A stretch of 64,000 nucleotides of DNA from Actinomycetota bacterium (GTDB taxonomy: Bacteria; Actinomycetota; Geothermincolia; Fen-727; JAQUKT01): the NCBI GenBank assembly GCA_028718945.1, contig JAQUKT010000003.1:624-64623 (forward strand), given 5' to 3'. Shown here in pieces: positions 28,643 through 32,931 of this stretch. Below the pieces are notes generated by a model, which was not told the DNA's origin, made no database searches, and saw only the letters and a list, made by a program, of their open reading frames with translations. The position numbers and the translations under genes were made by a program. Numbering within the stretch: the first letter of the stretch is position 1; every line of letters begins with the position of its first letter.

Positions 28643-29011
28643 TTGGCATCAACTCGTGAACAGCAAATGAAAGATTACCTTGAGGAACTGAAGGAAGCAG
28701 GCACAGGAATACTTTCTGCTGTACTTGTCAGCTCCGATGCTATGCCAATTGCGTCTGTTGGAGGCGAAGTTCAAGAGGAACTTATGAGCGCAATGGCTTT
28801 TTCTCTTTTGCAGGCAGGCGAACGGGTTGCAGCTGATTTGAACTGCGGAAATGTTGAGCAGCTTTATTTGAAGGGGGAGGGATGTGACTTTGTCATCCTC
28901 AGGGTAAATGATAATGCTGTTCTTGCCTGTACTGTTGACCATGATGCGAGGATGGGAATCATCCTTCTCGAGGTAAACAGGTGCGGCCAGAAACTTGTCG
29001 AAATCATATAG
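28643..29011 (+). CDS. Roadblock/LC7 (MglB-like) domain protein
   Basis: About 120 aa, SAVLVSSDAMPIAS...AFSLL pattern typical of Roadblock/LC7. Confidence 0.7.
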   Translation: MASTREQQMKDYLEELKEAGTGILSAVLVSSDAMPIASVGGEVQEELMSAMAFSLLQAGERVAADLNCGNVEQLYLKGEGCDFVILRVNDNAVLACTVDHDARMGIILLEVNRCGQKLVEII

Positions 29012-29056
29012 CGTGTCATATTGTCGAGGGTTTTTTGAAGAAAGGAAGAATGTCCT

Positions 29057-29593
29057 GTGGTAGAATTAAACGACGAGGGGAAAATAATCGGTGTTGTATC
29101 CTCTGAAGAAAAGGGAAAAGAGCTGGTTTCTGGTAATTCTGCTTTTGATTCTATGGAAAGCAGCAATAATAATACAGCTGGGGAGAAACATTTGGAGGAA
29201 CGGGAAACTCTACTTAGGAAGGAACTTGAGGGGCTCATTGAAAAATCCCCTGACATCGATGCCGCTGCGATTGTCAGTATGGATGGTTTTGTTATGGCGT
29301 CTATTCTTCCCCCGGAATACGAGGAAGACAGACTCGGCGCAATGACCGCTGCTTTGTTGAGTCTTGGTGAAAGAACAGCACTGGAACTCGGAAGGGGAGA
29401 GCTTGCTCAGGTATTTGTTGAGGGAACCAAGGGATATGTTTTTCTTCTTTCTGCCGGAGAGGATGCGGTTCTTGCCGCAATCGTTCGCAGGGGCAGTAAA
29501 CTCGGGCTCGTTTTGTATGATATCAGGAATGCGGCAACCAAGATCGCATCGATTTTTCAGACTGAATCAGAAATAGAAAATAGTTCTGAGTAG
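29057..29593 (+). CDS. Roadblock/LC7 domain protein with N-terminal extension
   Basis: C-terminal 120 aa (AAAIVSMDGFVMAS...AALLSLGER...FLLSAGEDAVLAAIV) matches Roadblock/LC7. Confidence 0.65.
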   Translation: MVELNDEGKIIGVVSSEEKGKELVSGNSAFDSMESSNNNTAGEKHLEERETLLRKELEGLIEKSPDIDAAAIVSMDGFVMASILPPEYEEDRLGAMTAALLSLGERTALELGRGELAQVFVEGTKGYVFLLSAGEDAVLAAIVRRGSKLGLVLYDIRNAATKIASIFQTESEIENSSE

Positions 29594-29607: not shown

Positions 29608-32382
29608 TTGCCGCCAGAGAAAGAGCTCAAGGGAAGTCTCAGAGATTTCAGTCTTCCAGATTTGTTTCAGTTGATACATTATGGAAGGAAAAGCGGTACC
29701 CTTAATTTAAGATACAATGATTTAAGGGGCTACGTTTGCTTCAGAAATGGCAAAGTTTTTTTTGCCACTCATAACTGGAAGCGACTTCCTCTCGGTAGAA
29801 GGCTCATCGAGTCCGAAACAATAACCGAAGACCAACTGGAGGAAGCCTTAGACCTCCAGAAGACAACACGAAGAGGTCAGCGTATTGGGGATATTCTCGT
29901 TGAGCTTGGATATTTGAGTCGAGAGTCCCTTGAGGTGTTTGTGGAAGAACAGATACGCGAGGCAGTTTTTCACCTCCTAAGATGGACCGAGGGGGAGTTC
30001 GAGTTCGACCCAAAACAGATTTTTCCGGAGGAGGACATTGGACTTTCAATGACTACTGAGGAACTGATAATGGAAGGCAGTCGCCGGCTTGATGAATGGG
30101 CAAAAATAGAAAAGAAGGTTCCTTCGCTCGAATCCATGTTTGAGTTGACCGGGATTGCGAAAAAAGATGAAGCCAATGAAAACCTGACCGACGAGGAGCG
30201 CCTTGTGCTCAACCATGTTAATGGTGAAAGCACTGTGCGGGATATGATCCAGAAATCCGGTTTAAGTGCACTGGCAACCTGCAAGGCTCTTTACGGGCTT
30301 GTGACAGCGGGTCTAATTTCGCTGAAGGGACAGAGGGCGCAAAGGGCGGCTCAAAGTGGTGGTCTGGAAGGTGAAATTGATAGATTCCAGGAGGAAACAA
30401 GAAGACCATCACCCGAAATTACCGAAAAGGCCAAAATCAGTTCGGAGACACGGATAGAAGAAAACGAAGAGATCCTTGAGGGGAAATCTGGTGTCGAAGA
30501 AATCGTGATAGGTGATGAAGAAATACATGTTGACAGAAGACGAAAAAGGTGGAAGAAAAAGCATGAGAAAGAGCCTGAAGTTGAGGTTGTAGAGGTTGAG
30601 GGTGGAGAGGAACCGGAGGAGGCGGAAGTCGGGAGTGAGGAAAAGTCATTGGAGAAAGTCAAGGAAGAAGAAGCTCCAGTAATTGTTCATGACGAGACAC
30701 TCGTTCCGGAACAGGTAGAAGAGAGTAAACCCTCTTCGGAGCAGAGCCTGGTTGACTACTACAAATCCCTGGCGATAAAAGAGGCATCTGATACTGAAAA
30801 GCTTGTTGCATTTCGCGAAACGGAGGAAAAATCAGAGAAAGAAAAGGTGGAAAGTAAACCGACTATTGAAGAGGAAGCCGCTCCCGTCAAGGAGATAGAG
30901 ATCCCAGAGTTTGAGGAACCAGAGGATGTTCCAATCGAATGGGCAAGTCATCTTTCAAGGTTGAAGGGAACAAGGGGAGTGAAATCAAAGGAAGTTCAAA
31001 AACCTATTGAGGTTGAGGCTTTGAAAGAAGAAGCGAAAGAGGAAGTAAACGAGGAGGTAGCTGAATCAAGAACAGAAGAGGCGCAAGAGGTTCCTGAAGC
31101 TGTTTCACGTTTCATGACTATAGAGCAGGAAGTGGAGGCACAGGCAACCGAGGAAGAAGGAATTTTCGGAGAGGTCACCGAGCTCGAGGAACCTTCGAAA
31201 ATCGAGACATCAAAACTGGAGCTGGCGTTAGGTGCCGAGGAAGTTTCGGGAATATCCGAAGAAGTCGAGGAAACAGCCTCAATGACTGCAATTGATGAGA
31301 TCGAGAGGTTAGTTGAGGGAGTGAAGGAAGGCAGGGGAGAAATTTCGCGCGAGGAACTTCTTACTTATGACCAGCCAACTTATCCTGATATTGGGGTTCG
31401 GCATGCTGAACCTATTGGGGAGGAAGAAAAGCCTTCGAAAGAAGTAGAAGTCGAAGAAGAACATGAGCGCATTGGAGGCAAGAAGAAAAAGCGGCTCGGA
31501 AAAGTTCTGAAATTTGTAAAGCCTGAGGAGGCTGAATTAGAGGAACATGAGTTAGAGGAACCTCTTATGTTTTCTGATGTCGAGCAGGTTGTCTTGTCTT
31601 CCAAGGAAGTGCTGGCATCTGCGCCTGTTCTCGACTTACCAATTATTGCTGAGCCAGAGGCAGGTTCCGAAGAGTCGCTTATTTCCGGAGGGGAGGTTAT
31701 CGAGGAGGAAGCCATTCCGCTTGTTGAGTCAGAATATGTGGTGGAGCCTTCAAGAGAGGTGATTGAAGAAACTCCTTCTGTTCCAGCCGAGATGATTGTG
31801 AGCGAAGAGCCTATGGAGGCTTCTATTCTTGAAGAAGAAGCAATCTCTGTCGAGGAAGTTTCAGAAGAGCAGGTTGAAGTAGCAAGGCCTTCCAGTGAGG
31901 TCAGGGTTGAAGAAGCCGAGACTGCCAGCGAGCAGTTTGATCTCGAAATGGAGGGAATGTCAGCGCTGAGAGAGCTATCGAGTGATAAGGCAGTCTTAGG
32001 GGGGGCAAAGCCCCTAATAGAGGAAGAAGAGGAAGAGCCTCCGCCGGAACCCGAAGTTTTAGAGAAGCCTATATCCGGACCCATGGAGGAAGAAGAGGAG
32101 GAGGAAGAAGAGGAAGAGGGTGTTTTCTCTCTCCAGGTTGGAGGGAGAAGGGGTGCGGGGACAAGCTTGATCGACCTTGAGACACTTGAACTCGAACAGG
32201 AACTTCTTGAGATTGCTGGCAGAAACAAAAAAAAGGAAGAAAGAAGACCTGTTCCAAAGGAGGTCAAGGAAGCGGAAGTGAAGAAGAAGGCAAAGAGAGG
32301 AGATCAAAACCTTAAGAAGCGGGGGGAAGAGAGTAACAAGGGTTCCATCAAGAAGGCGATTGACGACCTGAAAAAGAAATAG
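29608..32382 (+). CDS. DUF4388 domain protein with MshEN/T2SSE_N-like motif and ~600-aa polyacidic (Glu-rich) disordered C-terminus
   Basis: N-terminus [21 protein letters not shown]...GKVFFA...GEFEF (DUF4388) and [33 protein letters not shown] (MshEN-like), then E/V/K low-complexity to residue 924. Confidence 0.7.
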   Translation: [924 protein letters not shown]

Positions 32383-32388
32383 GAGGGT

Positions 32389-32931
32389 TTGATTTTGAAC
32401 AACAAGTTCAAAATTCTTGTGACGGGACCATATAACTCGGGGAAGACAACATTCATAGGAACAATAAGCGAAATTCAGGTTGTATCTACCGAAAAAAAAT
32501 TGAGGAGTGCTCAAGGAACTACAACTGTGGCAATGGACTATGGAAGAATAACGTTGAGTGATGGAGATGTTATTCACCTTTATGGGACACCGGGTCAGGA
32601 AAGATTTGATTTCATGTGGAGAATTCTTTCAAGGGGGATTCTCGGTTACGTTGTGCTTGTTGATGGAAGCGATCCGGGGGCTTTCGCTCAAGTCTCAAAA
32701 ATTATTGATGTTTTTTCTAAGATGACTGATGCCCCGTACGTTTTATGTTTGACCCGTGCCGATCTTAGGGATTGCGTCTCTTCGGAAGAGGCAAGAAGGT
32801 TTATTAGGGCTTCCGCTGATGTAGATATCCTCGAATGCAATGCGAAGAGTAGAGAGGATGTGAGGGATGTCATAGTGTCTCTTCTTGAAAGAGTCATTGA
32901 GAGTATGGAGGCTAAGTGTTTCGTTCCATAG
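32389..32931 (+). CDS. Small Ras-like GTPase, COG2229 (CvnD/MglA-related) type
   Basis: P-loop GPYNSGKTT, TTVAMDYGRI, LYGTPGQERFDFMW and VVLVD match Roadblock-associated COG2229 GTPases. Confidence 0.75.
   Translation: MILNNKFKILVTGPYNSGKTTFIGTISEIQVVSTEKKLRSAQGTTTVAMDYGRITLSDGDVIHLYGTPGQERFDFMWRILSRGILGYVVLVDGSDPGAFAQVSKIIDVFSKMTDAPYVLCLTRADLRDCVSSEEARRFIRASADVDILECNAKSREDVRDVIVSLLERVIESMEAKCFVP

Follow-up and report, generated by a model that had tools for sequence, protein, structure and literature searches.

The four genes at positions 28643–32931 (+) of a 64,000-nucleotide stretch of actinobacterial DNA (contig JAQUKT010000003.1 of assembly GCA_028718945.1; the whole stretch is called the window below) form a cassette that encodes two Roadblock/LC7 proteins (Rob1 and Rob2), a 924-residue protein with a PATAN (DUF4388) domain and a small GTPase. 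Judging from sequence comparison, we consider it fairly likely that this cassette is a switch of the MglA/MglB type dedicated to the type IV pilus (T4P) machine encoded next to it. The metagenome-assembled genome (MAG) that contains the window belongs to Actinomycetota and is related to Ca. Geothermincolia, Geothermincolia being a class of that phylum; the closest further relatives of the GTPase (55–63% identity) include Ca. Geothermincolia and Ca. Anoxymicrobium japonicum. The four co-directional open reading frames (ORFs), at their coordinates as first called, are separated by 45, 14 and 6 nt. A preliminary description, made from the DNA alone, had identified this tightly spaced set of two Roadblock/LC7 genes, a DUF4388 gene and a GTPase gene, and searches with Roadblock, DUF4388, MshEN and GTPase profiles upheld the assignments of all four proteins.

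To place the cassette in context, 10 loci were collected through GTPase homologues, 80 GTDB species representatives through a PATAN alignment and 32 metagenome loci through an alignment of the hydrogenase large-subunit-like protein encoded upstream of the cassette. The 80 genome loci are the best 80 of at least 534 PATAN matches, that is, those most similar to the window PATAN protein, and the survey is therefore weighted towards Actinomycetota. All ORFs in the loci were scored by phmmer and by hidden Markov models built from the window proteins; the carriers are uncultured MAGs or strains that have been little studied, L012–L026 coming from fen, sediment and hot-spring samples. Geothermincolia-type loci (L001–L006, L011–L026, L028 and L091–L122) show the order alaS-mltG-V4Rlike-HydS-HydL-Fd-Rob(2 or 3)-PATAN-GTPase-aroE-pilB-pilT-pilC-pilin, and three loci (L007, L027 and L029) have the same order minus the four hydrogenase-like genes. 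In the Coriobacteriia-type loci (~55 loci, PATAN identity ~40–44%) the order is alaS-mltG-aroE-pilB-Rob-PATAN-GTPase-x-pilB-pilT-pilC-pilin. Anaerolineae (L009, L123 and L125) have the PATAN–GTPase pair only, with a gene for a receiver (REC)-GGDEF protein and one for a GAF-domain sensor 3–5 kb downstream, and in Nitrospirota and Thermoanaerobaculia (L124, L089 and L090) the PATAN gene stands alone.

Within Actinomycetota the cassette is genomically tied to pilB-pilT-pilC. Among the loci with at least 3.5 kb of downstream sequence, 60/61 have pilB/pilT within 3 kb on the 3' side of the GTPase gene. Contrary to the preliminary description, the adjacency is not immediate, since aroE intervenes before pilB in the window (Table 1). 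In the Coriobacteriia-type loci, with L043 of Coriobacteriaceae bacterium EMTCatB1 as an example, the cassette sits between two pilB genes, from which it appears that the pilus link survived a rearrangement. The pilB neighbour is kept in two gene orders, on opposite sides of aroE, which argues that the link is functional and not mere inherited order. Because the PATAN–GTPase pair is kept even in Chloroflexi, these two genes form the cross-phylum core, the Roadblock gene(s) and the pilus tie having been gained in Actinomycetota. As a separate observation, a gene of ~237 codons without a Pfam match separates the GTPase gene from the second pilB (in L010 at 10530–11243, and likewise placed in other Coriobacteriia-type loci); its product may be a further cassette component in that lineage.

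The GTPase has 180 residues and is a single domain in which motifs G1–G5 are all present, as GPYNSGKT, TTVAMDYGR, GTPGQ, TRAD and CNAK. In a 26-member family alignment, G1 reads GPxxSGKT, G2 is an invariant TTVAMDFGR and G5 reads CDAR; Gly66, Thr67, Pro68 and Gly69 are invariant and Gln70 nearly so. Thr occupies the arginine-finger position of G2 in 26/26 sequences. G4 is TR[ASP]D in the pilus-linked actinobacterial clade, whereas the Chloroflexi relatives have the canonical NKQD. The family profile matches MglA of T. thermophilus (3t12) over its full length (E 4e-10). MglA proteins carry Thr in place of the G3 Asp, within TVPGQ in group 1 and GTPGQ in groups 2–5, and group 1 proteins have an intrinsic arginine finger beside the G2 Thr (PMC4316618). 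With G1–G5 in one domain, Thr in G3 and a coupled Roadblock gene, the GTPase is assigned by its sequence to the MglA family, as a GTPGQ type without an intrinsic arginine finger. That finger is absent from the 26 aligned sequences, so the window system is not a group 1 MglA; GTPGQ and the Thr at the finger position place the GTPase with groups 2–5.

Both Roadblock proteins score well above the Robl_LC7 (PF03259) cut-off of 23 bits (40.9 for Rob1 and 64.1 for Rob2). As the Rob2 orthologues are 132–144 residues long, the true start of this gene is probably the ATG at 29153, not the GTG at 29057. Structural matches of Rob2 are 7f8m (4e-22), CvnB5 (3leq, 1e-13) and MglB (~1e-3). The 17 Roadblock proteins that were aligned form three orthogroups, RobA (SSDAMPxAS), RobB (VSMDGFVMAS) and RobC (VGRDGFIIET), and a Roadblock gene is present in 80/89 related loci. 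The aligned Coriobacteriia-type locus L010 has RobB, the type of Rob2, and no other; RobA, the type of Rob1, is confined to Geothermincolia-type loci and L007. By this distribution and by sequence, Rob2 is classed as the conserved MglB-like partner and Rob1 as an accessory Roadblock paralogue. The third paralogue, RobC, is encoded 5' of the other two Roadblock genes in one subclade (L016–L026 and L104–L122).

The preliminary description had also pointed out a likeness to conservons and to MglA–MglB modules, with DUF4388 in place of the sensor kinase and DUF742 partner, and the matches of Rob2 to CvnB5 (1e-13) and of the GTPase to MglA (4e-10) bear this out. Like a conservon (CvnA–D), the cassette belongs to Actinomycetota, is a four-gene unit that includes a Roadblock gene and ends in a COG2229-type GTPase gene. 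Unlike one, it has PATAN and a second Roadblock protein in the positions of the CvnA kinase and the CvnC DUF742 protein, and it lies in a pilus locus. Neither the cassette nor its immediate neighbours encode a kinase, the gene 5' of the GTPase gene is that of the PATAN protein, and no DUF742 was found after the PATAN domain at E <= 1 among 34 family members. The G4 motif is TRAD, not the NxFD of group 2 (conservon) GTPases (PMC4316618). On these three counts, kinase, DUF742 and G4, the cassette falls outside the conservons.

It could nevertheless act as a general regulator of polarity, development or cell division, conservon-like with PATAN substituted for CvnA/CvnC, that came to lie near the pil genes through insertion into a stable backbone. 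We regard this as unlikely. The CvnB5 match of Rob2 would fit it, as would the annotation of the GTPase family, like that of CvnD, as ATP/GTP-binding protein, and the control of heterocyst patterning by PatA, the source of the PATAN name. Two further points favour it and speak against a dedicated pilus switch. The PATAN–GTPase pairs outside Actinomycetota (L009, L123 and L125) are not beside pilus genes. In addition, the alaS-ruvX-mltG-aroE backbone is present in all loci, and since alaS-ruvX-mltG-aroE...aroC is an old and rigid actinobacterial arrangement, the conserved order may partly reflect inertia within one phylum. On the other side, a general role accounts poorly for a pilB neighbour that is kept in two arrangements across aroE, flanks the Coriobacteriia-type cassette on both sides and, with pilT, lies within 3 kb in 60/61 loci with enough downstream sequence, and the G4 motif and the missing kinase and DUF742 set the cassette apart from conservons.

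The 924-residue protein is, on the evidence of profile and fold comparisons, a PATAN scaffold with an MshEN-type motif of the kind also present in PilB. DUF4388 (PF14332) scores 128 bits against a curated cut-off of 25, residues 8–165 covering the 122-position profile. In an AlphaFold2 (AF2) model of residues 1–240, built with 34 homologues (pLDDT 85), the PATAN core comprises strands 8–10, 30–36, 39–46, 49–55 and 130–134 and helices 16–25 and 150–168. A four-helix insertion (residues 62–124) lies between strands 49–55 and 130–134. The core is followed by a winged helix, and an acidic disordered linker of ~600 residues separates this domain from a C-terminal helix; residues 241–924 are 26.5% Glu and carry a net charge of -108. 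A Foldseek search against the PDB returned nothing at E <= 0.001, the top matches, NPRL2/3 (TM ~0.26), being a lead only. A relationship between PATAN and Roadblock was also considered and rejected (hhalign probability 0.2%).

The MshEN-like motif reported in the preliminary description stands. The profile NF053729 ('cyclic di-GMP-binding domain, MshE-related') matches PATAN residues 61–115 at 55–58 bits (cut-off 38), the insertion matches V. cholerae MshE (5htl) at E 1.3e-7, and MshEN is its best match in both sequence and fold. As in the MshEN receptors V. cholerae MshE and T. thermophilus PilF (GSPII-B), the match is to a helical module of 53 residues made of two 24-residue half-motifs; here it lies inside PATAN, not at the N-terminus of an ATPase. 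Among PATAN orthologues, NF053729 scores 42–44 bits in the Coriobacteriia-type proteins, above the cut-off, and 16.7 bits in Chloroflexi, below it. PilB of the window scores 67.6 bits at residues 9–61, with Pfam MshEN spanning residues 63–146. The presence of the motif in PilB is thus as described earlier; what had been read as a motif in tandem is one domain of two tandem 24-residue half-motifs.

Two groups of relatives deserve mention beside this motif. The genes downstream of the Anaerolineae PATAN–GTPase pairs (L009, 14138–18714; L123, 13033–16840; L125, 13675–16834) encode a REC-GGDEF protein (only Response_reg in L125) and a large GAF sensor (with HisKA in L123). The REC-GGDEF neighbours fit a connection of the pair with cyclic di-GMP (c-di-GMP). 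P0136 and P0160, homologues of the part encoded at 29608–30327, are PATAN proteins that carry the same insertion and are fused to a GspG-like pseudopilin domain (T2SSG, TIGR01710); by their predicted architecture, these fusions again connect this PATAN subfamily with type II secretion or pilus systems.

The C-terminus of the PATAN protein carries two conserved elements. The first begins G[KR]RGxGTSL[IV]; the second, the final amphipathic helix, follows the pattern V.KGS[VI]KKIIDDLKK and is conserved from the 275-residue PATAN proteins of Chloroflexi to actinobacterial PATAN proteins of 1400 residues. It is encoded by 72/75 PATAN genes directly 5' of a GTPase gene and by 0/3 at intact PATAN loci without an adjoining GTPase gene. 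Because its presence tracks the adjoining GTPase gene, we infer that the helix is a GTPase-docking peptide.

The winged helix raises the question of whether the PATAN protein acts on DNA, binding the pil promoter region so that the GTPase and Roadblock proteins (with or without c-di-GMP) control pilus transcription and not the motor. A REC-winged-helix partner has been predicted for group 3 MglA systems (Wuichet 2014, PMC4316618), which gives this idea some precedent. The net charge of -108 in the tail is unfavourable to DNA binding, and winged helices also make protein–protein contacts, as the weak NPRL2/3-like matches recall. PATAN-REC proteins, moreover, reside at the membrane and bind PilB/PilC, and a role in binding DNA is disputed in the same study (10.1101/2021.06.11.447907). 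Taken together, a DNA-binding function seems quite improbable. Cyanobacterial PATAN-REC proteins of the PatA type (PixG, PixE, LsiR and TaxP1) resemble the window protein in having PATAN with an α-helical insertion, and they bind PilB1/PilC and reorient T4P activity (10.1101/2021.06.11.447907). Unlike them, the window protein has no receiver domain, its input presumably being the GTPase and Roadblock proteins and not phosphorylation, and it adds a long tail, acidic and disordered, with a conserved helix at the C-terminus.

Directly upstream of the cassette lie four genes encoding a V4R-like protein, [NiFe]-hydrogenase small- and large-subunit-like proteins and a ferredoxin. The earlier V4R call is weakened: the window protein has no Pfam match, with none to PF02830 at E <= 1, and what remains of the call is that 5/9 orthologues match PF02830 weakly (best E 0.004). 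A PDB profile search with the V4R-like alignment gave spurious armadillo-repeat matches only, and a single-sequence AF2 model (pLDDT 43) was unusable. The kinship of V4R and Roadblock folds put forward in the preliminary description is not supported either, V4R being akin to TRAPP Bet3 and not known to be related to Roadblock. The cysteines of the module are strongly conserved, with 3 Cys of the V4R-like protein invariant in 28 orthologues, 12 Fe-S Cys of the small-subunit-like protein in 44 and 8 Cys of the ferredoxin in 43. The best NCBIfam match of the small-subunit-like protein, VhuG, is far under the cut-off.

For the large-subunit-like protein, the top NCBIfam match, VhuA, reaches 127 bits where the cut-off is 800, and a word-index search gave 4 close relatives and then true hydrogenases at 24–26% identity. 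The second Cys of RxCGxC is Asp in 23/45 family members and Cys in 22/45, and none of the sequences examined retains the Asp of DPCxxC. The C-terminus reads PCxxC[GA]xH in 44/45 relatives and stops at the His, with no C-terminal extension. The variant RICG[GP]DS, with Asp for the second N-terminal Cys, marks a whole subclade (L016–L028 and L104–L122) in which the Fe-S Cys of the partner proteins are all invariant. The window protein has the N-terminal RSCASC and ends in NSCMV, some 5 codons early, without the last Cys and the His; none of the alternative frames of the gene restores CGTH, and the early end reflects a genuine loss or else an error in the assembly. The affected positions, the second Cys of each CxxC pair, correspond to the two Ni-Fe bridging ligands (D. 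gigas numbering). The window protein has neither all four Cys ligands of a [NiFe] large subunit nor a score that would admit it to the curated family.

The module is restricted to the Geothermincolia-type clade. In the genome survey, 20/20 hydrogenase-like loci lie directly upstream of Roadblock–PATAN–GTPase genes wherever the contig extends, and the metagenome scan with the large-subunit-like query found the cassette context in 32/32 loci where the contig reaches, at identities down to 25%. Conversely, 48 loci with upstream coverage have the cassette and no module. The module is thus optional from the side of the cassette and exclusively cassette-linked from its own. The linkage proposed in the preliminary description therefore holds for pilB/pilT and for every module member, each found beside a cassette, and fails for those 48 loci. 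Roadblock genes number two in 17 and three in 21 of the 38 loci with the module, as against none in 4, one in 42 and two in 2 of the 48 without it, a correlation that is confounded by phylogeny. As Roadblock number tracks the module, the distribution suggests that the extra Roadblock proteins are its interface.

With its electron-transfer chain conserved and its active site non-canonical, the module would be better suited to sensing redox state or H2, or to some other non-catalytic task, than to the work of a standard hydrogenase. The specific reading, that it is a hydrogenase-derived sensor which reports H2 or redox state through the extra Roadblock subunits to the GTPase and PATAN protein and so steers the T4P, is tentative, and we hold it to be doubtful on present sequence comparisons. 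Regulatory [NiFe] hydrogenases (HoxBC with HoxJ/HoxA, group 2b) offer a parallel in that the large subunit ends at the His and the neighbours are signalling genes, not energy-conserving ones. Unlike HoxBC, the module is nearest to group 3 (Vhu/Mvh-like) profiles, at very low scores; a bridging Cys has given way to Asp in half of the family or, in the window MAG, is absent; and it is accompanied by V4R-like, ferredoxin and Roadblock/GTPase proteins in place of a histidine kinase, H2 sensing being putative. With its Fe-S chains kept and Ni-Fe site altered, the module is a candidate for a new sensory hydrogenase derivative. If the sensor reading is true, twitching or attachment of anaerobic Actinomycetota would be guided by H2 or redox state, prokaryotic small GTPases would have a new class of input, and the sensory hydrogenase would have been invented a second time, independently.

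The dependence could also run the other way, the GTPase and Roadblock proteins serving the module in assembly, metal insertion or regulation, with the pilus genes as bystanders. Each large-subunit-like gene found has the ferredoxin gene next to it on the 3' side and the cassette after that, and extra Roadblock genes co-occur with the module. HypB is a GTPase of Ni-Fe maturation, and so GTPases are in use for such tasks. This reading has very little probability in our estimation: the cassette lacks any hydrogenase-like gene in the 48 loci mentioned, its GTPase is Ras-like, of the MglA family and not of the G3E/HypB type, and the core conserved across phyla is PATAN plus GTPase.

Returning to the pilus switch, we propose the following mechanism (Table 1). 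A Rob1/Rob2 heterodimer would set the GTP/GDP state of the GTPase, as a GTPase-activating protein or a guanine-nucleotide exchange factor, and the PATAN protein would tether the GTPase through its C-terminal helix. By analogy with the PATAN regulators of Synechocystis, the PATAN domain may contact PilB or PilC, and this contact would switch pilus extension, retraction or placement. c-di-GMP would be a likely shared input, acting on both the PATAN protein and PilB. In the Geothermincolia-type clade the private upstream module may, by a weaker inference, add a redox or H2 input, and its signal may reach the switch through the extra Roadblock subunit(s).

Several further observations weigh against parts of this scheme. 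The published relaxed pattern of an MshEN half-motif is [RKPN]hGxxhhxx[GAS]hhxxxxhxxxhxx[QNKRYWST], with a 5-residue spacer. Half-motif II of the PATAN insertion fits it. Half-motif I is off the pattern, with Glu where [GAS] is expected and Thr in place of a hydrophobic residue (Pro for Arg is allowed), and the spacer has 7 residues, not 5. The orthologue P0121, by comparison, has a canonical half-motif I. In these respects the insertion also differs from the known MshEN receptors. The partly degenerate half-motif I and the longer spacer make the predicted binding of c-di-GMP by PATAN uncertain. A crude motif check of the 64-kb window picked out neither a GGDEF nor an EAL gene. Scans for promoters and terminators did no better on the window than on shuffled sequence. 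As for the module, the cassette occurs without it in sister lineages, and in the window MAG it may be impaired, because the large-subunit-like protein is without a metal ligand.

The cassette is best filed with the MglA/MglB/PATAN systems, as a variant, on the basis of its protein families. The MglA/MglB systems of M. xanthus and T. thermophilus (with SofG, MglC and RomY) likewise have a Ras-like GTPase with Thr for the G3 Asp, encoded beside Roadblock regulators. They place and activate T4P ATPases, and complexes of more than one Roadblock protein are known; in M. xanthus, MglA and SofG control T4P (PMC4316618). The window GTPase differs in combining GTPGQ, no arginine finger and G4 TRAD with two distinct Roadblock paralogues, and its similarity to MglA is just ~1e-5 to 1e-10. 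The cassette also differs in encoding a PATAN scaffold in the putative operon and in lying in a Gram-positive T4P locus.

The preliminary description had called such a switch previously undescribed, and this is not borne out. PATAN genes beside MglB/MglA genes have been reported by Makarova 2006, as reflected in papers that cite it, and by Wuichet and Sogaard-Andersen 2014 (PMC4316618). Binding of PilB1/PilC by Synechocystis PATAN-REC proteins is also published (Han et al., 10.1101/2021.06.11.447907), and the same authors note that GspE_N co-occurs with DUF4388 and suggest a conserved role of PATAN in T4P. Two M. xanthus PATAN proteins were candidates in a study of T4aP regulators and were not studied there, and Wang et al. 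2016 find MshEN in many architectures, PATAN not being named. Among the papers searched, we found no description of the cassette inside an actinobacterial pilus locus, nor of a hydrogenase-like family tied to Roadblock/GTPase genes. Regulation of T4P in Gram-positive bacteria, Actinomycetota especially, is poorly known, and here the cassette offers a concrete candidate regulator, conserved within the pilus locus of two large lineages of uncultured anaerobes. It joins three lines that have so far been separate, namely the polarity GTPases of Myxococcus, the PATAN regulators of cyanobacteria and the MshEN receptors of c-di-GMP.

Table 1 Coordinates of the cassette, its protein domains and the neighbouring genes in the window
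Feature	Position	Strand	Evidence
V4R-like protein, 162 residues, first gene of the hydrogenase-like module	25584..26072	+	Weak PF02830 matches of orthologues
[NiFe]-hydrogenase small-subunit-like Fe-S protein	26069..26917	+	Pfam Oxidored_q6, E 3e-21
[NiFe]-hydrogenase large-subunit-like protein	26919..28244	+	Pfam NiFeSe_Hases, residues 45-112 only
2x[4Fe-4S] ferredoxin	28254..28523	+	Pfam Fer4 families
Rob1, Roadblock/LC7 protein 1, accessory RobA type (SSDAMPIAS)	28643..29011	+	Pfam Robl_LC7, E 1.8e-10
Rob2, Roadblock/LC7 protein 2, core MglB-like RobB type (VSMDGFVMAS)	29057..29593	+	Pfam Robl_LC7, E 1e-17
PATAN (DUF4388) scaffold, 924 residues	29608..32382	+	Pfam DUF4388, E 2e-37, 128 bits, residues 8-165
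MshEN-type c-di-GMP motif in the PATAN insertion, residues 61-115	29788..29952	+	NF053729 profile
Winged-helix domain, residues 177-240	30136..30327	+	AF2 model of residues 1-240
Conserved near-C-terminal motif of the PATAN protein	32140..32220	+	C-termini aligned across Geothermincolia-type loci
Extreme C-terminal amphipathic helix, proposed GTPase-docking peptide	32332..32382	+	C-terminal conservation
MglA-family small GTPase, GTPGQ type	32389..32931	+	Pfam ATP_bind_1, 7e-16; Ras, 5e-12
aroE, shikimate dehydrogenase, housekeeping gene of the ancestral backbone	33132..33998	+	Pfam Shikimate_dh_N, Shikimate_DH, SDH_C
pilB, T4P extension ATPase with N-terminal MshEN motif	34035..35732	+	Pfam T2SSE, 2e-136; MshEN, 3e-23
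pilT, retraction ATPase	35762..36838	+	TIGR01420 pilT_fam, 488.6 bits, cut-off 319
pilC, platform protein	36960..38177	+	Same-position L001 orthologue with T2SSF_N and T2SSF; survey orthology agrees
Major pilin candidate	38231..38596	+	N-terminus GFTLIELMIVV; orthologues with N_methyl

In the window, a hisS/aspS-like region is followed by alaS, ruvX, mltG, the four hydrogenase-like genes, the cassette and aroE, and then by pilB, pilT, pilC, pilin, a TMEM260/TPR gene (-), pilD, pilMNO and the aroC/aroK/aroB/aroQ positions; several of these backbone names rest on gene order and orthologue annotation, not on a scan of the window ORFs. We take the ancestral actinobacterial order to be alaS-ruvX-mltG-aroE...aroC-aroK-aroB, as in M. 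tuberculosis Rv2555c–Rv2538c, and on that assumption the cassette and the hydrogenase-like genes would be insertions between mltG and aroE. The sole strong terminator-like hairpin, at 38622–38645, lies 3' of the major pilin candidate. An Rfam scan of the whole window matched no family, the c-di-GMP riboswitch included. The 200-nt spacer between the GTPase gene and aroE (32932–33131) forms a long stem-loop and was considered as a conserved element; it was rejected because its fold is unexceptional against shuffled sequences (z -0.74) and because the spacer in relatives is mostly 0–112 nt long and unalignable.

Two other observations concern pilus-related genes of the window. A gene for a TMEM260-like/PMT_2 O-mannosyltransferase-like protein lies inside the pilus cluster (window 38655–40886, -; L001 17284–19554), the window and L001 copies carrying TPR repeats, and a TMEM260-like gene also adjoins the Chloroflexi PATAN–GTPase pair of L009 (3896–6694); the product may be a pilin glycosylation enzyme. 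Farther downstream, the region 52529–62221 contains more pilin-like N-termini (52529+, 53123- and 58099+) together with ORFs of 918 and 971 codons, and resembles a second cluster of pilus-related or minor-pilin genes, past aroQ.

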